In this document: one piece after another, positions 7,184 to 36,139 of the stretch | Position numbering within the stretch: position 1 is the stretch's first letter | Layout: each line of letters begins with the position of its first letter | Source: a virus | Lineage: Duplodnaviria; Heunggongvirae; Uroviricota; Caudoviricetes | DNA length: 37,153 bases | Reading direction: 5' to 3' (one strand) | Virus record (IMG/VR): IMGVR_UViG_3300021400_002728 | Location: 1 to 37,153 of that record | The notes under the pieces: model-generated | The model's input: the letters and a program-made list of their open reading frames with translations, nothing else | Told to the model about the DNA's origin: nothing | Databases searched by the model: none | Made by a program: the position numbers and the translations under genes

Positions 7184-7921
7184 TTAGAACTTCAGCTGTT
7201 CAAATACTTTACCAAGTGATTCATGAATTACCAGATCAGCGATATTATCTTTTTCAGTTTCTGACATATTGATAATAACAAGCTTGCCATTAAAGATTCT
7301 TTTATTAACAAGACTGTTTGCAGGATATACTGAAAGTGATGTACCACCTACAATAAGTAGATCTGCATCCATAATCTTATATGAAGCTATACCAAATTCT
7401 GGTGGAAGCATCTCACCATAAAGTGTAACTCTAGGTCTGATTACTCCATCACATTCTGGACACTTAGGAACTGCGTCTTTACTTTCAAAGATATAGTCAT
7501 AAGGGAACTGTTTATGACAATCTTCACAATATACCGACTGAGTAGTTCCATGAATCTCAAGAACATTCTTACTTCCAGCCTTCTGATGAAGTCCGTCAAT
7601 GTTTTGTGTTACTATCCACAGATCTTTCTTCTGTTCAAGCTCTGCGAGCTTATAATGAGTAATATTAGGTTCTATATTACGAGTGTCCATCTTCTGTCTA
7701 TAGAACTCATAGAATACTTCTGGCTTATCATAAAGACAATCACAGCTTAACAGATATTCAGGCTGGTATTTTTCAAACTGCACATCATGCTGATTATAGA
7801 GACCATCTTTTGACCTGAAGTCCGGAATACCACTTTCAGTAGATACTCCAGCTCCACCGAAAAATACAATCTTATTAGCATTGTCTATATATTCCTGCAG
7901 AGTCTTTATTTCATCTGACAT
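7184..7921 (-). CDS. cobB: Sir2/CobB-family NAD+-dependent protein deacylase
   Basis: GGAGVSTESGIPDFRS, TQNIDGLHQKAG, EIHGT, CxxC...CxxC zinc site, RPRVTLYGE, VGGTSLSVYPA. Confidence 0.93.
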   Translation of the reverse strand: MSDEIKTLQEYIDNANKIVFFGGAGVSTESGIPDFRSKDGLYNQHDVQFEKYQPEYLLSCDCLYDKPEVFYEFYRQKMDTRNIEPNITHYKLAELEQKKDLWIVTQNIDGLHQKAGSKNVLEIHGTTQSVYCEDCHKQFPYDYIFESKDAVPKCPECDGVIRPRVTLYGEMLPPEFGIASYKIMDADLLIVGGTSLSVYPANSLVNKRIFNGKLVIINMSETEKDNIADLVIHESLGKVFEQLKF

Positions 7922-9656: not shown

Positions 9657-10490
9657 TTACCTATTCTTATTATGTCCTGCACCAGCCTTTTTAGCTTGTT
9701 TACGATTTTCTTTAGATTCTTTTTTATTAGGAACATGAGGTCGTTTAGCTAATTCAGCTTTAATAACCTTTACATTCATATTATGCTTTACTGTACATGA
9801 ATGTGACATACAGCATTCACAATAGTCAGTATAAAAATGTTGTCCATGTAACAATTCTAAAAGTTGTTTAGTATGATATTTCTTAAGTGTTTCTGGATTG
9901 ATTAAAGAACTACAATCTGCTATGTCTTTGTCGCGAATAGTATCAAATACAATAGATACCGCAGATTTTATACTTTTTTCAGTATAGTCATTATGAATAG
10001 TAGTTCTAACATTAACAGTTGTGAAATCTGGACTAGCAGAATCTCTCTTATCAAGATATTCTCTACTAATTTGATCTCTATCTATTACTTTTTTAATTCT
10101 GGTCTCTTCATCAGAAGAAACAAGAATCTTATATTCACATAACCACCAAAAGTCTGTATGAGGAAGTAAGATCCAATCAAGCACTACTTTATTACTATAA
10201 AGAGTATTCAAAATTTCTTTCTTCATATAATCATAAATACAGTCAGAAAGAGCTTTCATCTCATCTCTATTAGAGAATACAATATCACCAAGTCTCTTTC
10301 TGTCTACATGTCCATATTCATCTTCGATGTCAGGATATTTAGATTTAATTGTGTTGATAATTTCTGGTTGAAGAAGCGCTTTATGACCAATCTGATCAAT
10401 ATCTACATATTGATAATTAAGTCTTTTAGCTAATGCTTTCGCGAAAGTTGATTTACCACTACCAGACTTTCCTGTTACGCCAATTATCAT
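9657..10490 (-). CDS. coaE: dephospho-CoA kinase-like P-loop kinase with C-terminal extension
   Basis: IIGVTGKSGSGKST, VDIDQIGH and VDRKRLGDIVFSN motifs typical of CoaE. The last about 90 aa (Cys/His cluster, basic tail) are not CoaE-like. Confidence 0.8.
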   Translation of the reverse strand: MIIGVTGKSGSGKSTFAKALAKRLNYQYVDIDQIGHKALLQPEIINTIKSKYPDIEDEYGHVDRKRLGDIVFSNRDEMKALSDCIYDYMKKEILNTLYSNKVVLDWILLPHTDFWWLCEYKILVSSDEETRIKKVIDRDQISREYLDKRDSASPDFTTVNVRTTIHNDYTEKSIKSAVSIVFDTIRDKDIADCSSLINPETLKKYHTKQLLELLHGQHFYTDYCECCMSHSCTVKHNMNVKVIKAELAKRPHVPNKKESKENRKQAKKAGAGHNKNR

Positions 10491-10690: not shown

Positions 10691-11533
10691 TTATCCAAGA
10701 AGAGTATTAAACTCTTCCTCTGTAATTACCTTAATACCAAGATCCTTAGCTTTCTTAGACTTACCAGAAGTAGAGGTCTTGTCGTTACAAATGAGATATG
10801 TAAGATTCTTATTAACTCCAGCGATCTTACCGCCATTAGCTTCAATAATCTTAATCATATCTTCTCTCTTCATAGAGAGTGAACCAGTGATACAGAAGCT
10901 CATGTTATCAAGCTTACCACCAACAACTCTCTGCTTAACTGTAATGTAGTTAAGTACATCATTGATCTCAGAATAATTGAATTCAGCGATTACCTTTGCG
11001 GTAGTAGCACCAATACCGTTAATTTTAGTAAAGTCATAGCCAGTATTGACTGCATTCATGAAATCATCCCAAGTTGTAAAGGTATCTGCTAAAATGTTAG
11101 CTGTCTGCTTCTCAACATTAGGAATACCTGCAGAAGCAATGATCTTCCAAAGTTCAAGAGAGGTAGGAATACCTTCAAGAATCTTATCTACAGATCCTTC
11201 ACCATAACCTTTCATATGAACCCATTCATCTATATGATCTTTGAGTTTGAAGATGTCACTCATCTTGGTCAACCAACCAACCTTAATAAGATCTCTTACA
11301 GTTGCAGTGGACATAGATTCAATATCAAGTCCATGCGCGCCAATGAAATGAAGAAGCTTACCTTCAATTTTAGCACCACAATCAGGATTTGTACACACTA
11401 AAACTTCAGTATTGTACTTCTTCTCAATTCTTGTAGCACCACCACATCTAGGACAGGTAGTAGGAATCTGAATTGTCTGCCCATAAGCAGCTTCGATCTT
11501 TTTATCATTAACTTTCTTTAAGAGTGTGTTCAT
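10691..11533 (-). CDS. ligA: NAD+-dependent DNA ligase, C-terminal half (Zn finger, HhH repeats, BRCT)
   Basis: CPRCG...VCTNPDC zinc finger, LDIESMS / GYGEGS / GIPNVE / GIGATTA HhH-like repeats, and a BRCT domain (FCITGSL..KRED..IEANGG...LTYLICN...SGKSKKAKDLGIKVITEEEF). It has its own promoter and GGAGG RBS. Confidence 0.9.
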   Translation of the reverse strand: MNTLLKKVNDKKIEAAYGQTIQIPTTCPRCGGATRIEKKYNTEVLVCTNPDCGAKIEGKLLHFIGAHGLDIESMSTATVRDLIKVGWLTKMSDIFKLKDHIDEWVHMKGYGEGSVDKILEGIPTSLELWKIIASAGIPNVEKQTANILADTFTTWDDFMNAVNTGYDFTKINGIGATTAKVIAEFNYSEINDVLNYITVKQRVVGGKLDNMSFCITGSLSMKREDMIKIIEANGGKIAGVNKNLTYLICNDKTSTSGKSKKAKDLGIKVITEEEFNTLLG

Positions 11534-18938: not shown

Positions 18939-20027
18939 TTACTTCTCAGCCTTTGCAATCTGAGGAATAATCATATTAGCACGAAAAACCCATATTTTCT
19001 GACCAATATATGGTTTTTCTCCAAGTAATTCTTTCATAATAGAAATATTATGCATTGATGCATTCTGAATAGTAGCACCCTCAATAACAACGGGTTTGAA
19101 TGTAGCAACAGGAGTGATAGCTCCACTCTTACCTACCGACCAAGTAATTCCAGTGAGTTCAGTTTCAAACAGTTCATCATAAAACTTGAAAGCGAAACCA
19201 CCACGGAAGGAATGCTCATCATGACCTTTTGCCATATAAGACTTGTAATCATTGATCTTGTATACCAGACCATCGATAGGGTACTTTTTAGCAGCAGATT
19301 TCTGTCTCATTCTTTCCTGCTGAGCTTCAAGGTTTTCAGTATTGGTATATTCCCAATCAACTGTCACAAACTTGAGATCTGCAAGTTTCTGAAGCTTAAC
19401 ATCCAGATCATCTTCACCAGTGATCATGTCCCATGCAACAAATGTAAGGCATCTTCTCTCGCACTCATCAGGATTGTCAAGTCTAATAGAACCTGAAGCA
19501 AAGTTTCTAGGATTCTTGAACATACTAGAAAATTCTTCGAAGTCATCATACTTACAAATAACTTCACCATCAATTACGATAGTATCTTTAACTGCAATAG
19601 TCTTAGGAATAGACGGAAGTCTTTTTGCATTTTCTGTAATATCTTCACCAACAGTTCCATTTCCACGAGTTTCAGCAGATACGAGCTTACCATTCTCATA
19701 CTTGAGAGAACAAGTAAGTCCATCCATCTTCAACATAGTGATTGACTTTTCCTTAAGCCACTTCTTAAGAACTGCAGGATCTTTGGTCTTATCAAGAGAA
19801 AGCATCAAGTGGTTATGAGTAACCTTCTTGAGTTTATTCTGAATATCAAACTGAATTGTAGCTGAAGGAGACTTAGGATCAACATAACCAGTCTCTTCTT
19901 CATATGCACAACACTCAAAATACAACTGATCCCATGCTTCATCGCTGATCTCAGGATTTCCTTCGTCATACTTCTTAGTGTAGTAATTCAGCTTCTCAAT
20001 ATTCGCTGTATATTCTTCTCTTGTCAT
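18939..20027 (-). CDS. ligA: NAD+-dependent DNA ligase, N-terminal half (domain Ia, adenylation domain, OB fold)
   Basis: YDEGNPEISDEAWD (domain Ia), HLMLSLDK, MLKMDGL (KxDG), TRGNGTVGED, IDGEV, NPRNFASG, IDGLVYK, AFKF, VGKSGAITPVA, ASMHN, RANMIIPQI. It ends in TAA right after the OB fold. The ATG at 20027 follows GGAGG. Confidence 0.93.
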   Translation of the reverse strand: MTREEYTANIEKLNYYTKKYDEGNPEISDEAWDQLYFECCAYEEETGYVDPKSPSATIQFDIQNKLKKVTHNHLMLSLDKTKDPAVLKKWLKEKSITMLKMDGLTCSLKYENGKLVSAETRGNGTVGEDITENAKRLPSIPKTIAVKDTIVIDGEVICKYDDFEEFSSMFKNPRNFASGSIRLDNPDECERRCLTFVAWDMITGEDDLDVKLQKLADLKFVTVDWEYTNTENLEAQQERMRQKSAAKKYPIDGLVYKINDYKSYMAKGHDEHSFRGGFAFKFYDELFETELTGITWSVGKSGAITPVATFKPVVIEGATIQNASMHNISIMKELLGEKPYIGQKIWVFRANMIIPQIAKAEK

Positions 20028-20064
20028 TGATAAGACCTCCATACATTTGATTTATTATGTATTT

Positions 20065-20594: not shown

Positions 20595-20633
20595 AAAGAA
20601 AAGAGACTAACATAACACGTATATTAGTCTCTT
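20595..20633 (-). terminator. intrinsic terminator
   Basis: AAGAGACTAA-loop-TTAGTCTCTT followed by TTCTTT. Confidence 0.7.
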
Positions 20634-20801: not shown

Positions 20802-21254
20802 TTAATCGTCTTCTCCTTCATAATAGTTTTCTGAGTCTTCATCTCCAGCCTCAGAGTTCTGTCTGAAGCTATGTACATTCTCAGGAAATGTGGTAGTATC
20901 TGCAACCATTTCATCAAGTCTAGCCAGAATTGCTTTACCATCAAGAATCGATTCTTCATTCTGGATCTGTGACAATGCAGTCTTCCAAAAGCTATTGAAA
21001 TCACTTGCCGGATTGGTGAACCAATCTCTTAAAGTATCAATCTTTGATTCAAGCTTCTTTCTACTGATATATTTTACCATCTTATTACCCTTTTTGTACT
21101 CATTCTTAGCTTTAGGGTCTGATGGGTCATAGTAATTGCCGTTCATAAGACATCTACAATTTGCAAAATAATCAGTACAAGTCTGTGCGATCATTGCCGC
21201 AATCATTTGTTCACATCCATCCAATAAATTATCAATATCTCTTACGCTACTCAT
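20802..21254 (-). CDS. hypothetical phage protein (150 aa)
   Basis: ORF with GAAAGGA RBS; acidic tail. Confidence 0.75.
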   Translation of the reverse strand: MSSVRDIDNLLDGCEQMIAAMIAQTCTDYFANCRCLMNGNYYDPSDPKAKNEYKKGNKMVKYISRKKLESKIDTLRDWFTNPASDFNSFWKTALSQIQNEESILDGKAILARLDEMVADTTTFPENVHSFRQNSEAGDEDSENYYEGEDD

Positions 21255-21380: not shown

Positions 21381-22481
21381 TTAAAGTTTTTCAAAAAGTT
21401 TCATGGCTTCTTCAATAGTCTTATCCATATCATAATACTTATAACTACCAAGTCTACCGCCAAAAATAATTTTAGATTCATTTGTAGCTAATTCTTGATA
21501 CTGACTAAGAAGTTGATTATTTTTATCATCATTTACTGGATAAAATGGTTCATCTCCAAGTTTCCATTCAGAACTATATTCTCTAGAGATATATGTCTTA
21601 GGAAGATCATGTCCTTCTTCATCTTTACCAAACTCAAACCACTTATGCTCAATAATTCTAGTCCAAGGAGTTTCTCTATCAGTATAATTTACTGCAGCAT
21701 TTCCCTGAAAACTTGATTTATCAAGAAGTTCATTTTCAAATCTTACAGAACGGTATTCAAGATTTCCTAAACTATAATTGAAATACTCATCAATTGGTCC
21801 AGTATAAATAACTTTATCAAAGTCATTAGCTAATTCTTTATGCTCTAAGAAATTAATATTAAGTCTAACTTCAATTCCTTCAAGCATTTTTTCAATCAGC
21901 TTAGTATATCCACCAATAGGAATACCTTGATATTTAGCATTAAAATAATTATTATCAAAAGTCAATCTAACAGGAAGTCTTTTAATAATAAATGCTGGAA
22001 GATCTTTACAATCTCTACCCCACTGTTTTTCAGTATAACCTTTAATAAGCTTCTCATAAATATCTCTACCTACAAGACTAATTGCCTGCTCTTCAAGATT
22101 CTGAGGTTCATGATCGATTTCTTTTCTCTGCTCCTCAATTTTAGCAAGAGCTTCTTCTGGAGTTACTACACCCCACATCTTATTAAAAGTGTACATATTA
22201 AAAGGTAAAGAATAAAGTTCACCTTTATAGTTAGCTACTGGACTATTAGTAAATCTATTAAATTCTACAAATGAATTTACATAATCCCAAACTTCTTTAT
22301 TATTAGTATGGAAAATATGAGCGCCATATTTATGTACATTTATACCCTCAATCTTTTCAGTATAAACATTTCCACCAATATTAGGTCTCTTATCAATTAC
22401 TAATACTTCATGACCAGCTTTCTTTAACTGTTGTGCTACAGTAGCTCCAAATAATCCTGATCCAACAATTAAGTACTTCAT
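21381..22481 (-). CDS. glf: UDP-galactopyranose mutase
   Basis: MKYLIVGSGLFG FAD-binding start, IGGNVY, HKYGAHIFHT, GYTEKQWG, RLPVRLTFDNNYF, YTGPID, TRIIEHKWF, FYPVND, GRLGSYKYYDMD. Confidence 0.96.
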   Translation of the reverse strand: MKYLIVGSGLFGATVAQQLKKAGHEVLVIDKRPNIGGNVYTEKIEGINVHKYGAHIFHTNNKEVWDYVNSFVEFNRFTNSPVANYKGELYSLPFNMYTFNKMWGVVTPEEALAKIEEQRKEIDHEPQNLEEQAISLVGRDIYEKLIKGYTEKQWGRDCKDLPAFIIKRLPVRLTFDNNYFNAKYQGIPIGGYTKLIEKMLEGIEVRLNINFLEHKELANDFDKVIYTGPIDEYFNYSLGNLEYRSVRFENELLDKSSFQGNAAVNYTDRETPWTRIIEHKWFEFGKDEEGHDLPKTYISREYSSEWKLGDEPFYPVNDDKNNQLLSQYQELATNESKIIFGGRLGSYKYYDMDKTIEEAMKLFEKL

Positions 22482-23524
22482 ACAATCTTACTCCATTCCT
22501 TCTTGAAATATTCTAAATCAGTAAATTTCTTCACTGACTCAGTATTAAATATCTTCTTAATAATCTTATCATAATCAGTCTCATTTATCTTATCCTGAAT
22601 ATGATCAATATCAACTACTAAATATCTCTTTACAATTCGATAAATATCAGGAAATGTATTCTTTAAATCAGTTAAATCTACATTATCTAATACTAATGGT
22701 AAACAATGATTTGATACAGCCTCTAAAAATCGAATAATACTAAATGTAGTCTTATCATAACTAGGAATAATTAAAGTAAACTTAGCATGAGCTAACTTAT
22801 CATAATATGTATTCTGATCTACATAGGTAGAATCTCTCTTAGTTATAATGCCTACATCTGATCTCTTAATCTTCTTTATCTTACTAGCCTTATCCACTAA
22901 ATATTGCCTATCTGGATTCATGGCTGTTCCATAAAATACAAAATCTAATGTCTTCTCAATGTCTTTACCATTCAAAAACATATATCTTTCGTAAGTAGGC
23001 ATATATACCATATTATTTTTATTTAATATATAAGTAGTTGTGCCATTAAATAAATCAGATAATTTACATTCTTGCGGATCTAATCCAAAATGAATAATAT
23101 TTTTATTTGAATTTTCTCTACAAATAACATAAGATTCAAGGACGGCTCTAGTAGATACGTAGTTCACACTATAATTATAATTTTTATCAGACATCCACTT
23201 TTCAAAACCATCTATAAAACTATGACATAAATAATTATTATACTTACAAATATTACTTGCAAATACAATAAGACTGTCTAAATCTTTAGTAGACTTTTTA
23301 ACATCTTTTATATAATCTTCCCAGTTTATATATTCATCATGCCAATAAATATGTCTATAGGCTACATCGTCTCTATCTAGTAGATTCTTTAATTTATTGC
23401 CTTTATATATATCTATTACTACTAGGTTTTCTGGTCCTACACTATCAATGATGGCATTCATATGGTATTTTATAGTATTTAATAAACCTTTAGTAATACC
23501 TATATTTAATAATAATCCTACCAT
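22478..23524 (-). CDS. GT-B fold glycosyltransferase resembling T4 DNA beta-glucosyltransferase
   Basis: KTLDFVFYGT...DRQ and AKFTLII...FSIIRFLEAVSNHCLPLV parallel the T4 BGT C-domain as recalled (KTLDVIYGG; ALII...TLRVWE). It overlaps glf by 4 nt. Confidence 0.65.
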   Translation of the reverse strand: MVGLLLNIGITKGLLNTIKYHMNAIIDSVGPENLVVIDIYKGNKLKNLLDRDDVAYRHIYWHDEYINWEDYIKDVKKSTKDLDSLIVFASNICKYNNYLCHSFIDGFEKWMSDKNYNYSVNYVSTRAVLESYVICRENSNKNIIHFGLDPQECKLSDLFNGTTTYILNKNNMVYMPTYERYMFLNGKDIEKTLDFVFYGTAMNPDRQYLVDKASKIKKIKRSDVGIITKRDSTYVDQNTYYDKLAHAKFTLIIPSYDKTTFSIIRFLEAVSNHCLPLVLDNVDLTDLKNTFPDIYRIVKRYLVVDIDHIQDKINETDYDKIIKKIFNTESVKKFTDLEYFKKEWSKIV

Positions 23525-23527
23525 TAT

Positions 23528-24307
23528 TTAACCTCTTATATCTGAAACATATTTAGTGAATACTTGCTGTATAATAGCAGCTTTATCTGCTGCGTCATTT
23601 AATAATTTAGTATCTATATTATCATTTATCATAGTATTATCAAAATCATACGATAAATAAGCTGTAGCAATTTTATTGTTATTATTTGTAGTTCTATATA
23701 TCCAGTTTAAAGAAAATCCTAGATCTTTTTCAATACTAGTCTTTTTCTTTTTCAATTTTTCAAACAATTCAAAATCATTAGAAGCAAAATCTATTACTAG
23801 TTTAAACTCTTCTAAAGAATTAAAACATATACCCGCCCAAGCCTCTGAGTATCCGACTGGTACCTTTAATGCATGTGAAGTATATGTATCTAAATTACAT
23901 TTAGTATTCAAGTTATTTGCATATTTACTAAGTTGATTCCAGAATGGAGTATATTTACTAGTAGTAGATTTTCGTGCAGAATTGATGGTATTAGTAATCT
24001 CAGGAAAAACTTGAGTACCCATTCTAGAAAGAACTCGTTTAGCTCTATCTTTATCTACAGCAAATAATTCAGTTTTACTATCTTTAGCTCCAATAACTCG
24101 GCTTTCTCTAAAAATATCATGCATAATATTTTCAATTTCACTATAGTCAGAGCATTCAATTACAAAATAAGTTTTAAGGCCATTCATATTTCTATAGCCA
24201 TTTGTTTCTAATTCAGATTGGCATCGTCTATTCCAGTTATCTGATTTGCCAATTTTAATAATACCGTCTACAGCAGTAGTCATTATATAAACATAACCCT
24301 TTGCCAT
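23528..24307 (-). CDS. GIY-YIG (T5orf172-like) nuclease fused to a DUF4268-like domain
   Basis: GYVYIM...IIKIGKS...R...E..MH..F...TELF N-terminal domain; C-terminal FW.QL...LFEKL...K..IEKDLGF.LNW pattern. Confidence 0.72.
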   Translation of the reverse strand: MAKGYVYIMTTAVDGIIKIGKSDNWNRRCQSELETNGYRNMNGLKTYFVIECSDYSEIENIMHDIFRESRVIGAKDSKTELFAVDKDRAKRVLSRMGTQVFPEITNTINSARKSTTSKYTPFWNQLSKYANNLNTKCNLDTYTSHALKVPVGYSEAWAGICFNSLEEFKLVIDFASNDFELFEKLKKKKTSIEKDLGFSLNWIYRTTNNNNKIATAYLSYDFDNTMINDNIDTKLLNDAADKAAIIQQVFTKYVSDIRG

Positions 24308-24326
24308 ATTTACTTTATCCTTTCAT

Positions 24327-24360
24327 AAAAATATAGGCTAGCTTTTTAGGCTAGCCTATT
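24327..24360 (-). terminator. intrinsic terminator inside the DNA-modification cluster
   Basis: ATAGGCTAGC-loop-GCTAGCCTAT followed by ATTTTT. Confidence 0.75.
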
Positions 24361-24364
24361 TGAA

Positions 24365-25345
24365 TTAAACGTTTGTTGCATCTGGTGTAGTATTAGCCCA
24401 ATCAAACTTAGTGCTTCTACTGGTCTTGAAACCATCTTCTACAATAAGTTTCTTAAGACCTGCTACATCGTGGTTTTTAATAATGTCCTTATAGCAGTCT
24501 TCATAGTAAGCATTAGCAAGAGGAATACCTAATTCAAGTTTCTTCATAATGATACGTCTCTGAGGTCTAGCATTTACCTGACCCTTCTTTTCCATGAACT
24601 TGATAGTATCTCCCCAAGTCTTATACATATAGACTCCGATTTCAGTCCACTTATCTACTCCAGTATTTGCTACAGACTTATCAGGTTCCATAACATCAGT
24701 GATATAGGTAAGACTAGGAATAGTACCAGTCATTAATCCCTTAGAAAGAATCTGAAGAGTAAGATCGAAATCATCCCAACCATGATCTTTTCTATATTCG
24801 ATTCCATTTTCTACAAGATCCTTAACATTCAAATGAATCATCTGAATAGGAAATCTTACATAGTCAACAGGAGGTCTCTTTCTAAAGTCATTAAATACTG
24901 CAGCATTTTCAGTAATACATCCAGTCTGAGTAAGATGCTGATCAGCATTCTCAATAATAGACTGAAATTCTGCGAAGAAATCATATACAGAAGTCTTCAA
25001 CTTAATAGAACGATACTTTGTAGGATCCTTCTTCTGAACTCCTGCTTCAAGCTTATGTACTGAAGGAATATCATCATCAAGTACGAAGATATTTTCATAT
25101 CCCTTCTCTAACATAGTCTTATTGATAAAGTTTCTCTTAGGTACGATACCTCTGAATCCTTCACAGTAGCATACCGTAAATAGACCAGAATCAATAATCT
25201 CCTTATAATTCTCTGCATCATCAGGATATACAAACAAGAAAAGATTTAATCCCTGTTCATATCCATTCTTCAGCATCTGTAAGGTCTTTGCCTTACTTCC
25301 TCTTTTGTAGCTAGGTACTACAATTGGCCATAATTCTTTCTTCAT
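24365..25345 (-). CDS. GT-A fold DNA glycosyltransferase (TAGT / T2-T6 glucosyl-hmC glucosyltransferase-like)
   Basis: IVVPSYKRG, GIVPKRNFI, IFVLDDDI (DxD) and WDDFDLTLQILSKG motifs typical of this family. Confidence 0.8.
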   Translation of the reverse strand: MKKELWPIVVPSYKRGSKAKTLQMLKNGYEQGLNLFLFVYPDDAENYKEIIDSGLFTVCYCEGFRGIVPKRNFINKTMLEKGYENIFVLDDDIPSVHKLEAGVQKKDPTKYRSIKLKTSVYDFFAEFQSIIENADQHLTQTGCITENAAVFNDFRKRPPVDYVRFPIQMIHLNVKDLVENGIEYRKDHGWDDFDLTLQILSKGLMTGTIPSLTYITDVMEPDKSVANTGVDKWTEIGVYMYKTWGDTIKFMEKKGQVNARPQRRIIMKKLELGIPLANAYYEDCYKDIIKNHDVAGLKKLIVEDGFKTSRSTKFDWANTTPDATNV

Positions 25346-25349
25346 TCTA

Positions 25350-25745
25350 TCAGTTCCTTTCTAATTTATTTATTACATCTTGTGCAATTTGAAACATTGT
25401 CATTTTAGACGTATTATATTCGAGAATAGTTAAACCTTCTTGTTTTAGAAGATTTTTATATTTTTCAAATAATTCTACATCTTCATGATAATTAGTTTTA
25501 GGTTCATTGGCAAGTTTGCATCTAATATTCCAATCGTCTTCATCCACAGTTAAATAGATGATAATAGGCTTATAATCAATTTCATACTCATAGTTACGAT
25601 GATATTTTTCAGAATATACCATCATAGATAATAAGCCTCTATCATGAATGACATACTTATAATTAGATAATTGATTTACATATGGAATTAAAGAGTTCTT
25701 ACCAGATTTATCAATTCCTTCTACTTCAATAAGATAGTTTCTCAT
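25350..25745 (-). CDS. small thymidylate-kinase-like nucleotide kinase (131 aa)
   Basis: IEVEGIDKSGK P-loop, IHDRG motif, PIIIYLTV. Confidence 0.75.
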   Translation of the reverse strand: MRNYLIEVEGIDKSGKNSLIPYVNQLSNYKYVIHDRGLLSMMVYSEKYHRNYEYEIDYKPIIIYLTVDEDDWNIRCKLANEPKTNYHEDVELFEKYKNLLKQEGLTILEYNTSKMTMFQIAQDVINKLERN

Positions 25746-25771
25746 ATAATTAAATAGCCGCTCGTACGGTG

Positions 25772-25807
25772 AAAAAGGTAGTAGACTATGTTATAATCTA
25801 CTACCTA
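25772..25807 (-). terminator. intrinsic terminator
   Basis: AGGTAGTAGA-loop-TCTACTACCT followed by TTTT. Confidence 0.8.
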
Positions 25808-25812
25808 TTAAG

Positions 25813-27126
25813 TTAAACGCTATAAATAATGTTCTTAGATTTAAGCAGTTCAGTAAATGCATCCTTATCAGTAAACTTATTATCTACCCAATCAATAAGT
25901 TCATCCTTATTTTCAATAAGCTTACGAATATCAAGTCTCTCAGGAAGTGTTTCCATAGTTCCATAAGCAATATTCTTAGTAAACTTAAAGTCAGCATCAT
26001 ACATATGCATAGAGAATGCAAAGTGAGTATATGAACCATATCCAACACCAAGCTGATCTGCAATATATTTCTGAAGGAAAATAAAGTATGCAATATCGTT
26101 TCTAAGACCAAAGTTAAAATCATTTGATCTCATAACACAATTACAATCAAGTACATTATCTCTAATCTGATAGTTTAAGCAGATTGTACACATCTCATCC
26201 TTAGTTGTCTTAACATTAGGATTAGGTACATTGATATTAAGAACTGCTCTTCTAGAATAAGGATCATGTTTAAGTAAATCAATAATTGCTTCAATCTGAT
26301 TAAATCCATGCTTCTCCTGAAGAATATATCCATAAGCAGAATTAGCAGTCTTACCATCATCTGTTACTCTATTCCAAAACTTAGAGAATTTTGTAATAAA
26401 GTCAAGATCGTTTCTAGAAGACCAATACCAAAGAAGCTCTGCAGCTACATATGTAAGATTAGTTCCACCAGTCTTAAGGGTGATACATTCATTTCCCTCA
26501 ATATCATCAATAGTGAACTTATAATCAGTAAGTTCCTTAGTAGTTCCACGAGGATTCTGTGAAGGAATAGGATGACCAAAATCAAGAAGATCATTAGCAA
26601 GCTGTCTATAAGCTATATTAGGTGTAATCTTATTGATATGTTCAGCTACCCATTCATCAAGCTTATCATAACAACCCTTCTTAGCTACGTCAATGACATA
26701 AAAGTTCTTATAGTTATACTTGCTAAATTTCTTAGCATATTTCTTAAACCATTTATTTTGCTCATCCATTTCGGCAAGATAATTTTCTTCACCTCTAGCA
26801 ATAAGTCGCTCATTGATAACCTGCATCTTAGAAGTAATAAAGATAATGAAAATATCGTTATTATCAATAATTCGTCTTTCTACTTCTTCAAGCTCCTTGT
26901 TATTCATCTTTGCCTTACGGTCATATACCTTGGGATAAACATATTCTCCTACATGGAATCGATCAAATACTGTAGAAGATCTATAGTCCAATAGATCTAA
27001 GTGATACGCTAAATCATTTCTTGTGGACGCTGTAGAATGCAGAATAGAAAAACCATACTTGTCTCTGATTTTCTCGGCAAGCGTAGTTTTACCAGCCGCA
27101 TCGAGTCCTTCTAGAATTACGTTCAT
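25813..27126 (-). CDS. dNMP kinase fused to a thymidylate-synthase-fold dCMP hydroxymethylase (T4 gp42-like)
   Basis: N-terminus ILEGLDAAGKTT and FDRFH. C-terminus AELLWY, NSAYG, SRRAV, EMCT (catalytic Cys), MRSNDFNFGLRND and SMHMY. The RND Asp sits where dUMP-specific enzymes have Asn. Confidence 0.85.
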   Translation of the reverse strand: MNVILEGLDAAGKTTLAEKIRDKYGFSILHSTASTRNDLAYHLDLLDYRSSTVFDRFHVGEYVYPKVYDRKAKMNNKELEEVERRIIDNNDIFIIFITSKMQVINERLIARGEENYLAEMDEQNKWFKKYAKKFSKYNYKNFYVIDVAKKGCYDKLDEWVAEHINKITPNIAYRQLANDLLDFGHPIPSQNPRGTTKELTDYKFTIDDIEGNECITLKTGGTNLTYVAAELLWYWSSRNDLDFITKFSKFWNRVTDDGKTANSAYGYILQEKHGFNQIEAIIDLLKHDPYSRRAVLNINVPNPNVKTTKDEMCTICLNYQIRDNVLDCNCVMRSNDFNFGLRNDIAYFIFLQKYIADQLGVGYGSYTHFAFSMHMYDADFKFTKNIAYGTMETLPERLDIRKLIENKDELIDWVDNKFTDKDAFTELLKSKNIIYSV

Positions 27127-27153: not shown

Positions 27154-27188
27154 ATTATATCATGTATACTTCTATTTGTAAATAGATT
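27154..27188 (-). promoter_or_regulatory. phage early promoter, copy 9 (drives the DNA-modification cluster)
   Basis: AATCTA-TTTACA-N17-TATAAT with TGA extension. Confidence 0.8.
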
Positions 27189-27992: not shown

Positions 27993-29315
27993 TTATTCTT
28001 CATAAGAACTGCCAAGGAATGTTACTTCCTCTCCGTTCTCAAGAGCAGTGTTAATATAGTCCATGCAAAGATCAATTTCTTCCTGAGTCATAGCTAAATC
28101 ATATTTACTACAAATCATCAACCAAGAATAACAATAATCTTCTATATTTATATCAGGAAGATATTCACATGGCCCTTTATCAGACTTACTACGATTAGCA
28201 GAATTAAGTACATCTACACCAACCCACTGATCATAAGCATACGCATTCTTCTGTTCATCTGTCCAATCTTTTGCACCTCGTAAATAAGTAGATTTCAGGG
28301 GGACGATGTGATCGTAATCCACAGTACCGAAGTCATTATCTGCTTTCTTATCATCTAAGTCATGAATGATAGTTCCAGTATATGGACACATATAAGTATT
28401 ATCTTCTGCATTATACCAAGGACTAGTCTTCCAAGCATAATCATTACGATTAACTTTCTTACCATCTAAGGTATAACTTGTAGTAGGTTTCTCATATGAA
28501 TTTCTATCATAATCATCATATTCAGGTAATGTATCAATTACTCGAATAGAATTTGCAAGAACATTGAGGTTATCTGCATTAGCTAATGTAGTATCATAAA
28601 CTAATTCTCCAGTAGTTGCGGTAGAATCACCTTCTGTAGGAGTAGGTTCTACTCTATCAACTTCCCAAGAAATAGTTGCATCTGCATGCCAATTATTACC
28701 TAACCATCTAATGAACTCTGCAGTGTTAGATGATGTAAGTTTAATTTCTTTATCATCGAGAGTGATCTTAATTGATCTTACATAGGAAATTCCAATTTCG
28801 TCTGGAAGTTTAACATCTTTCTTTACAAGATTTCCATTTTCATCAACATAACTGTCATTTCCAGTTTCAGTAGTAGGAGTTCCAGGATCATCAAGTCCAG
28901 GATCTGTAGTAATATCTGTTCCATCAATAGGATTACTTGGATCAGTTATTTCTCCATCTCCACTATTATTACCACCACCAAATGGTCCACCTGGATCGCT
29001 TATTCCAGGATCTGTAGTAAAGTCTGGTAAATCTAAGTTATTTTCACCTTCACCACTATCAGCAACTTGAGTATTATCACCAGTAGGATTACTAAAGTCC
29101 ATACCATTTTGTTCATGTTCATACTCAGGTAGATTTTGAACAATCTTATTTGGATCAGGTAAACTTGGAAGTGTATGTACAAGAGGAGATAAAACTGATT
29201 GTGGATCTCTAAGATGTACCTCGCTCTTAAATGAATTAAGAGTATATCCACCTAGACTTAAGAGGCCCATAAACAGCAAACCCATAAAAAGTATTTTGAT
29301 AATTCTCTTAATCAT
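27993..29315 (-). CDS. membrane-anchored/secreted HNH nuclease (DUF1524 / GmrSD C-terminal-like) with a low-complexity linker
   Basis: N-terminal hydrophobic anchor; Asp/Gly/Pro/Thr-rich stalk; CPYTG...DYDHIVPL...W...NSANRSKSDKGP C-terminal nuclease. Confidence 0.8.
   Translation of the reverse strand: MIKRIIKILFMGLLFMGLLSLGGYTLNSFKSEVHLRDPQSVLSPLVHTLPSLPDPNKIVQNLPEYEHEQNGMDFSNPTGDNTQVADSGEGENNLDLPDFTTDPGISDPGGPFGGGNNSGDGEITDPSNPIDGTDITTDPGLDDPGTPTTETGNDSYVDENGNLVKKDVKLPDEIGISYVRSIKITLDDKEIKLTSSNTAEFIRWLGNNWHADATISWEVDRVEPTPTEGDSTATTGELVYDTTLANADNLNVLANSIRVIDTLPEYDDYDRNSYEKPTTSYTLDGKKVNRNDYAWKTSPWYNAEDNTYMCPYTGTIIHDLDDKKADNDFGTVDYDHIVPLKSTYLRGAKDWTDEQKNAYAYDQWVGVDVLNSANRSKSDKGPCEYLPDINIEDYCYSWLMICSKYDLAMTQEEIDLCMDYINTALENGEEVTFLGSSYEE
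28896..29020. repeat. 17-nt direct repeat encoding the TTDPG units of the nuclease stalk
   Basis: TCCAGGATCTGTAGTAA at 28896-28912 and 29004-29020. Confidence 0.8.
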
Positions 29316-35641: not shown

Positions 35642-36139
35642 TTATCTCCTTTTATTGAAATAGTCTTCGAGGATCCGTTTGTGATCAAAGGCAAGATCTT
35701 CCATCTTAAAGGTATGATTCTTACCATCTTCAAAATTTACAAATCCTGCAGCAGCTGCGTCGTCGTCCGGTTTGACCTTGGAGACATACTCTGAAGGAAG
35801 GTTTATAGAATATACAATACTCACTACATGATCTCTAGGGTCTCTCTGGGGATCACTGTAGACGCCTTCCAGAACTATATTATTAGGATCTATATCCAAA
35901 CTAGTTTCTTCTTTAAGTTCTCTTACTGCTGCCTGAAGAGTATTTTCTTTACCTACATCAAGAAAACCGCCGGGAAGTGCCCATTTACCTCGATAAGGGA
36001 AATTTTTCCGTTTTACAAACAAAATACCTTCACCATCAATATGAACTATAAAGTCCACAGTGACTGAAGGCTTTGGATATTTATTTGGATCATATTTAGC
36101 GAGATAAGCTCTCTCTTCATCATTTTCAGGTACGTACAT
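35642..36139 (-). CDS. Nudix hydrolase (ADP-ribose pyrophosphatase / NadM-NrtR-type Nudix domain)
   Basis: YPKPSVTVD, WALPGGF...ENTLQAAVRELKEETSL Nudix box, YSDPQRDPR, LAFDH; no C-terminal wHTH. Confidence 0.9.
   Translation of the reverse strand: MYVPENDEERAYLAKYDPNKYPKPSVTVDFIVHIDGEGILFVKRKNFPYRGKWALPGGFLDVGKENTLQAAVRELKEETSLDIDPNNIVLEGVYSDPQRDPRDHVVSIVYSINLPSEYVSKVKPDDDAAAAGFVNFEDGKNHTFKMEDLAFDHKRILEDYFNKRR

Follow-up and report, generated by a model that had tools for sequence, protein, structure and literature searches.

The stretch of viral DNA analyzed here (37,153 nucleotides, hereafter the window) constitutes the first 37 kb of IMG/VR record IMGVR_UViG_3300021400_002728, a viral record that comprises 394,266 bp, has direct terminal repeats and represents a 394-kb cattle-gut jumbo phage. 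Within the window, whose G+C content is approximately 31% and whose long open reading frames (ORFs) all lie on the minus strand, we propose, with moderate confidence, that a gene cluster specifies T4-type pre-replicative hypermodification of cytosine, in which a 348-amino-acid (aa) glycosyltransferase of the GT-B type would place galactofuranose (Galf) on 5-hydroxymethylcytosine (5hmC) first, with a 326-aa GT-A-type member of the TET-associated glycosyltransferase (TAGT) family acting after it or on leftover 5hmC. The name GT348 is coined here for the family of the 348-aa protein. Biosynthesis would be initiated by the thymidylate synthase (TS)-fold domain of a 437-aa fusion protein, which is predicted to convert dCMP to 5-hydroxymethyl-dCMP (5hm-dCMP), and the fused kinase, perhaps together with a separate 131-aa kinase, would phosphorylate this product. 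Host enzymes would then yield the triphosphate, and the phage polymerase would build 5hmC into DNA. The subsequent transfer of Galf onto the hydroxyl of 5hmC in DNA is believed to be a function of GT348, with the UDP-Galf donor being supplied by a translationally coupled UDP-galactopyranose mutase (Glf) that would be fed by host UDP-galactopyranose. The TAGT protein would add a further hexose onto that Galf, as its T2/T6 relative does, or, alternatively, would glycosylate the 5hmC left free by GT348. Folds, family memberships, active-site signatures, the gene overlap and the recurrent gene linkages are direct observations; the DNA acceptor, UDP-Galf as the GT-B donor and the order of the two transfers are what we infer.

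The acceptor of glycosylation is very probably 5hmC in DNA, because the TS domain carries the corresponding residue signature and because GT348-family genes repeatedly adjoin hydroxymethylase genes, as is the case in T4. The 437-aa protein (25813..27126, minus strand) combines an N-terminal thymidylate-kinase-like P-loop domain with a TS fold (PF00303, E value of 1.3e-24; PF02223, 1.6e-6; phrog_160 and phrog_761) and is the one TS-like protein that the 394-kb genome encodes, its best PDB matches being the CMP hydroxymethylase MilA and the T4 dCMP hydroxymethylase (gp42). With respect to Escherichia coli ThyA, C313 corresponds to C146, D310 to L143, D336 to D169 and D344 to N177, with identical spacing, and the TS-domain residues also align with T4 C148, D179 and D171. 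Among TS homologues, the N177D exchange is reported to direct the enzyme to cytosine and an acidic residue at L143 to specify a hydroxymethyl product, while D169N yields a 5-hydroxycytosine synthase (PMC13326640). As the window protein possesses an Asp at the N177 position and an acidic residue at the L143 position and retains D169, 5hm-dCMP is the expected product, and not 5-hydroxy-dCMP or 5hm-dUMP; an identity as a 5-hydroxycytosine synthase was rejected in view of the retained D169, and that of a dUMP hydroxymethylase in view of the Asp at the N177 position. The 437-aa protein is predicted to make both 5hm-dCMP and 5hm-dCDP. A GT348-family gene directly overlaps the TS-like gene in loci L004 and L041 (the latter from the cultured Agathobaculum phage AB434P2), is located 140 bases from it in L049, and lies at most 8 kb from TS-like genes in L012/13, L016, L017, L022 and L040. 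The TS-like genes which neighbor these GT348 relatives, including those of L004, L006, L041, L049 and L050, carry the same dCMP hydroxymethylase signature, and the layout corresponds to that of T4, in which gene 42 is followed by beta-gt.

The TS-like gene of AB434P2 (L041:3838-4500, OP172633.1) is annotated as encoding a "deoxyuridylate hydroxymethyltransferase", yet its product harbors an Asp at both the ThyA N177 and L143 positions, the signature of a dCMP hydroxymethylase, and the annotation is, judged by these residues, probably wrong. The GT348 homologue of this phage, whose gene is the one that overlaps the hydroxymethylase gene, is 36% identical and would be suited as a tractable model of the family, while a 328-aa protein encoded upstream is 62% identical to an L004 protein with a weak GT10-like match. 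A further arrangement was observed in the complete 61.5-kb genome IMGVR_UViG_3300028888_000149 (L006:7677-12940), where divergent GT348 paralogues of 362 and 405 aa flank the hydroxymethylase gene and may represent a two-step or two-anomer system derived from one family. The GT348-like gene of Vibrio phage pv27 was found to be without informative neighbors.

The sequence-only reading from which this analysis proceeded had placed a GT-A protein and a GT-B-like protein in the span 22478-25345, which was found to contain three minus-strand genes rather than two, encoding proteins of 326, 259 and 348 aa. It had recognized the 348-aa protein (GT348; 22478..23524, minus strand), a predicted DNA galactofuranosyltransferase, from the motifs KTLDFVFYG and IRFLE, and had noted a likeness to the T4 β-glucosyltransferase (BGT). 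Both motifs are present, at residues 191-199 and 264-268, respectively, and within them K191, F197, R265 and E268 are nearly invariant in a 61-member family alignment (A4). Structure prediction followed by a Foldseek search, the check which that reading had put forward, gave an AlphaFold2 model (from the 19-sequence alignment A1) with a predicted local distance difference test score (pLDDT) of 92.7, a predicted template modeling score of 0.91 and two Rossmann-like domains, to which the model assigns a GT-B fold, a fold whose absence had been envisaged as one argument against the assignment. The first-ranked Foldseek match is T4 BGT (1c3j; E value of 3.9e-6), and re-alignment by VIA against BGT 1j39 returned a Z score of 18.1 with a root mean square deviation (rmsd) of 3.7 over 277 residues and 16% identity, compared to a Z score of 16.0 for the next unrelated GT-B enzyme and identities of 7-12% for other GT-B enzymes. 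A Foldseek-independent scan of 48,161 PDB representative chains likewise ranked T4 BGT first (Z score of 17.3), followed by HepE (15.9). BGT, at 351 aa close to GT348 in length, also displays the highest identity among the structural matches.

Correspondence at the residue level is suggested by an hhalign comparison of the 61-member profile with T4 BGT, which covered the whole C-terminal domain at an E value of 0.0019 and a probability of 14%. At this low probability, KTLDFVFYG is paired with KTLDVIYGG of BGT and IRFLE with LRVWE, in support of the likeness that had been noted, and the conserved K191, R206, R265 and E268 are paired with BGT K180, R195, R269 and E272, while BGT R191 falls opposite the non-conserved M202. 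We take BGT R191, R195, R269 and E272 to be UDP-binding residues (Morera et al., Lariviere et al.). The natural candidate for the catalytic base is D149, which forms part of a DPxE motif following the N-domain strand 142-146 and shows no variation in A1 and almost none in A4; as the hhalign comparison of the N-domain was unreliable, its correspondence to BGT Asp100 is a topological analogy only, in which D149 would be the counterpart of both Asp100 and D152 of the phage enzyme GT94. The model is devoid of a signal peptide or membrane segment, every residue being accommodated in the globular two-domain fold.

By sequence, GT348 is not a member of PF09198 (CAZy family GT63), and it forms a separate family for which there is no Pfam model. 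Pfam returned just a sub-threshold GT47 match for the 348-aa protein (E value of 0.0046), similarly weak GT47 matches being obtained for 33 of the 61 family members (best, 2e-6), and no PHROGs match was found. The family comprises 427 representative clusters at an E value of ≤1e-3 among 1.84 billion proteins, nearly all of 350-380 aa and all annotated as "hypothetical". Its profile detected nothing in the genomes of T4 (E value of ≤1) or of Rhizobium phage RL38J1, and a fold search of BFVD retrieved generic viral GT-B proteins only, none of them an informative near neighbor. Neither glycosyltransferase of the cluster matched PF00535, the GT2 family to which the known Galf transferases GlfT1 and GlfT2 belong, a result which concerns family membership and not the ability of GT348 to use UDP-Galf. 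In the metagenome scan for GT348, a single-protein query found nothing, while an alignment query yielded four loci.

The identity of the predicted sugar is derived from the adjacent gene. The 366-aa Glf protein (21381..22481, minus strand) matches PF03275 (1.7e-81) and PF13450 (1.4e-22) and, over residues 3-360 and thus across the FAD-binding N terminus, the E. coli UDP-galactopyranose mutase 1i8t (E value of 1e-151), matches by which it is taken to be a genuine UDP-galactopyranose mutase. The ATG of glf overlaps the TGA of the GT348 gene in an ATGA at 22478-22481, which bears out the translational coupling that had been read from the sequence. GalE and GalU were not found in the phage genome, and Glf must, therefore, convert host UDP-galactopyranose. 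Few phage records contain Glf (89 of 50,697). Its linkage to GT348 recurs in three lineages, two of which are without a TAGT. In the close relative L048, a GT348-like gene (75% identity) overlaps the Glf gene (81% identity). The distant L050 harbors, in this order, genes for a TS-like protein, a kinase, Glf, a GT348-like protein and a dUTPase, all overlapping or abutting; its GT348-like protein exhibits 40% identity (the two identities of the pair being 40% and 48%), no TAGT was detected in it by tblastn, and its ORFs of 304, 394 and 602 aa gave no Pfam match, apart from the kinase in that of 394 aa. GT348-like and Glf genes are located 8 kb apart in G004, a complete genome of 49 kb whose whole record is without a TAGT. 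Glf was present in none of the 19 TAGT-bearing records; it tracks GT348, not TAGT. Because the GT348-Glf pairing recurs, twice without any TAGT, the GT-B enzyme is, by this gene linkage, the likelier galactofuranosyl transferase of the two, in agreement with its earlier nomination as the first candidate for that role. "Bacteriophage sp." fecal scaffolds (L045-L047) encoding a Glf of 60-77% identity were set aside as uninformative, resembling polysaccharide loci and lacking GT348, TAGT and any clear TS-like gene.

The 326-aa protein (24365..25345, minus strand) is a TAGT family member with a GT-A fold and all three active-site motifs. It matches PF20691 (TAGT) with 53.5 bits against a Pfam cut-off of 27.5 (E value of 3.8e-14; profile positions 2-189 of 205), a match reproduced when the genome was scanned, followed by a C-terminal extension of approximately 100 residues, as well as phrog_842 (6.3e-15), which is annotated as beta-glucosyl-HMC-alpha-glucosyltransferase. 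The motifs by which it had been recognized as a GT-A protein, namely, VPSYKRG (residues 10-16), LDDDI (89-93) and WDDFD (190-194), are all encoded on the minus strand and correspond to the R...DDD...EDY/F active-site signature of phage GT-A DNA glycosyltransferases (bioRxiv 10.1101/2023.12.21.572611). R15, D90-D92 and D191-D192-F193 are conserved in the TAGT alignment of the protein, and R15, D90, D91, D192 and D194 are invariant when distant TAGTs of T4-like viral contigs (approximately 20% identical) are aligned with it. Structure prediction gave a weak AlphaFold2 model (mean pLDDT of 59.9), whose residues 1 to approximately 248 match GT-A structures only, among them GnT-I (Z score of 12.4, rmsd of 3.7, 186 residues) and TarP (Z score of 10.4), the latter being also a PDB neighbor of published phage GT-A DNA glycosyltransferases (bioRxiv 10.1101/2023.12.21.572611). 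The T2/T6 enzyme which adds the second glucose is itself a PF20691 member (PMC13216743), and the 326-aa protein is predicted, from its family membership, to be a DNA glycosyltransferase acting on 5hmC or on its sugar. Its homologues of 80-83% identity are located on contigs of 401,291 and 9,861 bases, and GT348 homologues of 61-65% identity on contigs of the same sizes, co-occurrence with TAGT being read from these equal sizes only.

The genes appear to be organized in two units. A promoter-like site (TTTACA-17-TGnTATAAT, 11 of 12 positions; 27154..27182, minus strand) was located by consensus scan just upstream of the hydroxymethylase gene, and is to be regarded as a pattern match only, as promoter-like sites overall were no commoner than in shuffled sequence. 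The TAGT gene is the second one downstream of the hydroxymethylase gene, shares its strand, is not separated from it by a terminator-like site, and is followed by an intrinsic-terminator-like hairpin (24333..24359, minus strand; 10-bp stem and a T run) that was seen in the sequence as well as by scan. The second unit, situated between this hairpin and that at 20601-20633, which was found by scan, comprises the genes for the 259-aa GIY-YIG protein, GT348, Glf and a 150-aa protein without a Pfam or PHROG match (20802..21254, minus strand), the last of which immediately precedes the closing hairpin. Four terminator-like sites were found in the region compared to 1.7 expected. The interval of the 150-aa gene is replaced in relatives, with 518 bases here and 527 other letters there.

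The gene between the hydroxymethylase and TAGT genes specifies a 131-aa thymidylate-kinase-like protein (25350..25745, minus strand; PF02223, 3.2e-4, below the cut-off; phrog_761, 1.1e-5) that is 38% identical to the N terminus of the 394-aa protein whose L050 gene is flanked by those of the TS-like protein and Glf. It occupies a variable slot (25346-25822), which is 476 bases long in the window and about 2.4 kb in the strain of run X3 record 11 (gut metagenome), an interval approximately 2.1 kb longer. Between the two glycosyltransferase genes lies that of the 259-aa GIY-YIG/T5orf172 protein with a DUF4268 domain (23528..24307, minus strand; PF13455, 9e-9; PF10544, 2.3e-8; PF14088, 2.6e-8; phrog_18411, 4.4e-14), which occupies the same position in contigs from bovine gut (X6 record 23 and others). 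phrog_18411 is annotated as "homing endonuclease", and T4 endonuclease II is a GIY-YIG enzyme; from its domains, the 259-aa protein could be an insert of the homing-endonuclease kind or, instead, a nuclease directed against unmodified DNA, which would attack the cytosine-containing DNA of the host and spare modified DNA. The position of the gene is comparable to that of segA beside beta-gt in T4.

The sequence-only reading had envisaged a two-step pathway in which a disaccharide is assembled on DNA. Its two glycosyltransferases of the stated folds are supported and its hydroxymethylcytosine acceptor is likely, while sequential assembly stays a proposal, given that both families have members which act directly on 5hmC and that the two T4 enzymes act in parallel; a stepwise disaccharide of the T2/T6 type and parallel action of the T4 type are alike compatible with the sequence. 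In T2/T6, the only characterized case of a GT-B enzyme together with a TAGT in a TS-type phage, the second glucose is added by the TAGT onto the sugar placed by the GT-B enzyme (PMC13216743). In the T4-like viral contigs L019 and L023-L038, a gene of the GT348 subfamily (351-355 aa) directly precedes a TAGT gene that overlaps it, the TAGT protein being 505-514 aa in length in L023, L036 and L038, with a conserved N-terminal extension of approximately 200 residues aligned in L023 and L036.

Several observations weigh against Galf transfer to 5hmC by GT348 followed by TAGT action. The phage is uncultured. The lead of BGT over ordinary GT-B enzymes amounts to just approximately 1.4-2 Z units, and sequence comparison at the HMMER level does not reproduce it: PF09198 was unmatched by the 348-aa protein at an E value of ≤0.1 and by the 61 members at ≤0.01, and the GT348 profile found no BGT chain at an E value of ≤10, with only chance matches among PDB sequences. 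GT348 is not markedly basic, with an isoelectric point of 7.6 (family median, 8.2) compared to 9.05 for T4 BGT, although as a proxy for DNA binding this property did not discriminate. To our knowledge, the Galf transferases GlfT1 and GlfT2 are all of the GT-A fold. Among 40 viral records with a GT348-family gene, 39 are without Glf, and the maximum-likelihood tree places all three lineages with Glf linkage in the subfamily of the window protein but apart from one another, forming no clade (three changes); there is, accordingly, no family-wide tie to Galf. The Glf-GT348 pattern appears to reflect repeated recruitment of a supply gene, perhaps where the host UDP-Galf pool limits, and donor specificity may vary within the family. 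The promoter-proximal unit, furthermore, contains the TAGT gene besides that of the hydroxymethylase, but not the GT348 gene, and a hairpin stands between the two glycosyltransferase genes, an arrangement that would fit a TAGT acting first. TET-associated TAGTs are known to act directly on 5hmC (bioRxiv 10.1101/2023.12.21.572611).

These points lend substance to alternative orders of action. The two enzymes might each add one sugar to a different subset of 5hmC, Galf by the GT-B enzyme and a host hexose by the TAGT, with no disaccharide formed, a possibility which we consider unlikely but which retains a real chance of being correct. T4 offers a precedent, its two glucosyltransferases acting in parallel to give approximately 60% alpha and 40% beta products (PMC13216743), and direct action on 5hmC is known for TAGT-like GT-A as well as BGT-like GT-B members; the two genes lie in separate units with the terminator-like hairpin in between, and GT348-family genes occur without TAGT just as TAGT genes occur without GT348. 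This is countered by the sole characterized TAGT of a TS-type hydroxymethylcytosine phage, that of T2/T6, whose substrate is a sugar already attached by a GT-B enzyme, and by the overlapping GT-B and TAGT genes of the T4-like contigs, which look like one functional unit. Less probable again is a reversed order, in which the TAGT, co-transcribed with the hydroxymethylase, would place the first hexose and GT348 would cap it with Galf. Such an order would account for the promoter-proximal position of the TAGT gene, with GT348 and Glf behind the hairpin and a nuclease gene, would agree with the first-sugar role of TET-associated TAGT-like enzymes, and would explain why TAGT is better conserved than GT348 in relatives (80-83% versus 61-65%), as expected of a variable outer GT348-Glf module. 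It is, however, difficult to reconcile with GT348 genes that stand beside hydroxymethylase genes on DNA without a TAGT, as judged from the whole records of L041 and L004 and from tblastn on L049 and L050, with L050 in particular, where TS-like, kinase, Glf and GT348-like genes are accompanied by no other detected glycosyltransferase, and with BGT, the closest structure, working on the base in duplex DNA.

A more radical departure would confine DNA modification to the TAGT, with GT348 and Glf remodeling a glycan of the host or the virion, for instance a teichoic acid, a glycoprotein or a wall polysaccharide that contains Galf. GT-B and GT47-like domains are mostly glycan acting, most Glf genes in phage-labeled records are found at prophage ends or in polysaccharide-like loci, and the complete genome G004 encodes GT348-like and Glf proteins but no TS-like protein; nevertheless, GT348 genes repeatedly adjoin those of dCMP hydroxymethylase, nucleotide kinase, dUTPase and DNA polymerase, not glycan-export genes, and the best structural match is BGT, with a model free of a signal peptide or membrane segment, so that we deem this explanation improbable. 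Equally remote, and by a shade the least credible, is an exchange of donors, whereby the TAGT would transfer Galf and GT348 would employ a common host donor such as UDP-glucose. The GT-A fold of the Galf transferases known to us, the UDP-glucose donor of BGT and the absence of Glf from most records with a GT348-family gene speak for such an exchange, while Glf accompanies GT348-like genes where TAGT was undetected (the whole record G004 and the contig L050), never occurs in the 19 TAGT-bearing records, and has a start which overlaps the GT348 stop in L048 as well as here. Transfer of Galf to 5hmC by GT348, with the TAGT acting subsequently or on the remaining 5hmC, is the reading retained.

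Near-identical contigs of the cluster were present in gut and bovine-gut metagenomes, a statement of habitat which rests on the four runs from four studies that were compared, runs with small shares of the stretch not being counted. These runs consist of assembled contigs, in which base-modification signals and transcript ends are not visible. A bovine-gut contig of run X6, an independent sample, spans 22179-25346 with 98% identity and identical gene order. The hydroxymethylase, TAGT, GT348 and Glf genes are represented in contigs of a bovine metatranscriptome library, as is the GT348/Glf junction, which is crossed by an RNA-library contig at 22273-22518; these contigs are compatible with expression of the cluster and do not prove it. 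A megablast comparison of the cluster with 50,697 phage records gave no match.

In three related small phages (L005:5339-9065, L003:3156-6865 and L056:4489-7056), whose records are IMGVR_UViG_3300045988_147269, _171426 and 3300035520_000516, a common block precedes the DNA polymerase III alpha gene and stands where the hydroxymethylase module would be. It consists of genes for a TMK-like kinase, a 331-339-aa protein and a 360-362-aa Peptidase_U32-like protein (PF01136, 5e-9 and 3e-6); two of the three phages carry a GT348-family gene in it, and the genome of one (G004) has Glf as well. No TS-like gene was found in the whole records of L003 and L005 or, for L056, in a 13-kb locus with the window protein as the query. 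U32 proteins include the anaerobic RNA and quinone hydroxylases RlhA, TrhP and UbiUV. The block could, accordingly, provide hydroxylated pyrimidines for glycosylation in DNA by another pathway, and no literature on a U32-type route to a glycosylatable DNA base was found.

Elsewhere in the genome, a MazG-type (gp56-type) dCTPase was not found in the 394 kb, and a NUDIX hydrolase encoded in the window (35642-36139) is a candidate for dCTP clearing. The window also encodes a SIR2-family protein (7184-7921), a dephospho-CoA-kinase-like P-loop kinase (9657-10490), a 440-aa protein without a Pfam match (27993-29315) and what is apparently a split NAD-dependent DNA ligase, specified by two minus-strand genes approximately 7 kb apart, one for a 367-aa protein with adenylation and OB domains (18939-20042) and the other for a 280-aa protein with helix-hairpin-helix and BRCT domains (10691-11533). 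A third glycosyltransferase, a 381-aa GT2-family protein (PF00535, 1.3e-21) and the sole one of its family in the genome, is encoded outside the window at 53.5-54.7 kb of the genome (G000), with a gene for a 205-aa S-adenosylmethionine-dependent-methyltransferase-like protein directly upstream (locus G000:C1:52674-56153, L052), this pair being located approximately 30 kb away from the hydroxymethylcytosine cluster.

Sugar-coated cytosines represent a main phage escape from restriction enzymes, CRISPR nucleases and DNA glycosylases, and a new sugar shifts which defenses are effective. The cluster predicts a hexofuranose on hydroxymethylcytosine, the transfer of which is assigned to a widespread unannotated family, and a BGT-like enzyme with a defined donor would give the GT348 family a function and could extend the 5hmC labeling toolbox, of which T4 BGT is the standard reagent. 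In its broadest form, which we advance tentatively and rate below an even chance, the proposal is that GT348 constitutes an uncharacterized class of DNA glycosyltransferases (BGT-like in fold, unrelated in sequence, approximately 430 clusters) making, in this phage, galactofuranosyl-5-hydroxymethylcytosine that is extended by TAGT to a Galf-containing disaccharide, and that it may also serve the U32-route phages; if true, the U32-type handle with the GT348 family would add a third way of obtaining pyrimidines in DNA that can be glycosylated. Sequential DNA glycosyltransferases, sugar-nucleotide partner enzymes and a phage mutase for DNA galactosylation are already published (2023, 2026), and because the general principle is thereby established the gain is incremental rather than conceptual. 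What is new is the combination on 5hmC, the translational coupling of Glf to a BGT-like enzyme, the pairing with TAGT and the recognition of GT348 as a large unannotated family; no published report of Galf on hydroxymethylcytosine was found.

In comparison with the T-even phages, the cluster shares with T4, T2 and T6 the pre-replicative handle produced by a TS-fold dCMP hydroxymethylase and a nucleotide kinase, with T2 and T6 the pairing of one GT-B enzyme with one TAGT-family GT-A enzyme, and with T4 (42, beta-gt and segA) the proximity of a glycosyltransferase gene, next to one of the GIY-YIG type, to the hydroxymethylase gene. It differs from T4 in that its GT-B enzyme belongs by sequence to neither PF09198 nor PF11440, its kinase is fused to the hydroxymethylase, a phage Glf is coupled to the GT-B gene, so that the predicted sugar is Galf and not glucose, no gp56-type dCTPase was found, and the host is a gut bacterium rather than an enterobacterium.

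Phage enzymes of both fold classes, GT-A (TAGT/JGT-like) and BGT-like GT-B, were reported by Pyle et al. to glycosylate 5hmC, in a survey of approximately 25,000 glycosyltransferase-containing contigs in which the GT-B type was mostly linked to ThyS, and subclasses were defined with two sequential glycosyltransferases (I), with a glycosyltransferase and an epimerase (II) or with a GT-B enzyme and sugar-nucleotide enzymes (III) (bioRxiv 10.1101/2023.12.21.572611). Those clusters share with the present one the fold classes, the GT-A signature and the dependence of a glycosyltransferase on a sugar-nucleotide partner, and their GT-B enzymes likewise resemble T4 BGT (Foldseek E values of 1e-5 to 1e-7), with D152 of GT94, a putative catalytic Asp around residue 150, having a candidate counterpart in the invariant D149 here; GT348 was compared with GT53, GT66 and GT94 of that study by description. 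The clusters tested there comprise a methyltransferase and TET and form 5hmC after replication, whereas the TS-type system of the window would do so before, and their partners are epimerases or a cytidylyltransferase with HAD/APH enzymes, in contrast to the pyranose-furanose mutase found here; no furanose product is described in that paper, in which the terms "mutase" and "furanose" are absent.

The closest parallel for the mutase is provided by RL38J1 (Pootjesviridae), where the base-proximal galactose attached to 5-hydroxycytosine was proposed to derive from UDP-Galf made by a phage-encoded Glf (Lee et al. NAR 2026; PMC13326640). Common to both systems are Glf, the side-by-side location of kinase, GT-B and TS-homologue genes, and further glycosyltransferases that extend the glycan. 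The RL38J1 handle is, however, 5-hydroxycytosine, generated by a D169N TS homologue, whereas D169 is kept here and 5hmC is predicted; its glycosyltransferases are all of the GT-B type without similarity to the GT348 family, with no TAGT in the list of that paper; and its Glf, 45% identical, is encoded far from the glycosyltransferases instead of being coupled to a GT-B gene. In RB69, DLP3 and HY126, GT-B enzymes place another furanose, arabinofuranose, on a cytosine derivative with phage genes supplying the nucleotide sugar, a trait that the window cluster is predicted to share, and the glycosyltransferase of HY126 (9iqz) was retrieved as a structural match of GT348 (Z score of 15.3), while the sugar, the handle (5-hydroxycytosine) and the glycosyltransferase families of these three phages differ from those of the cluster described here.

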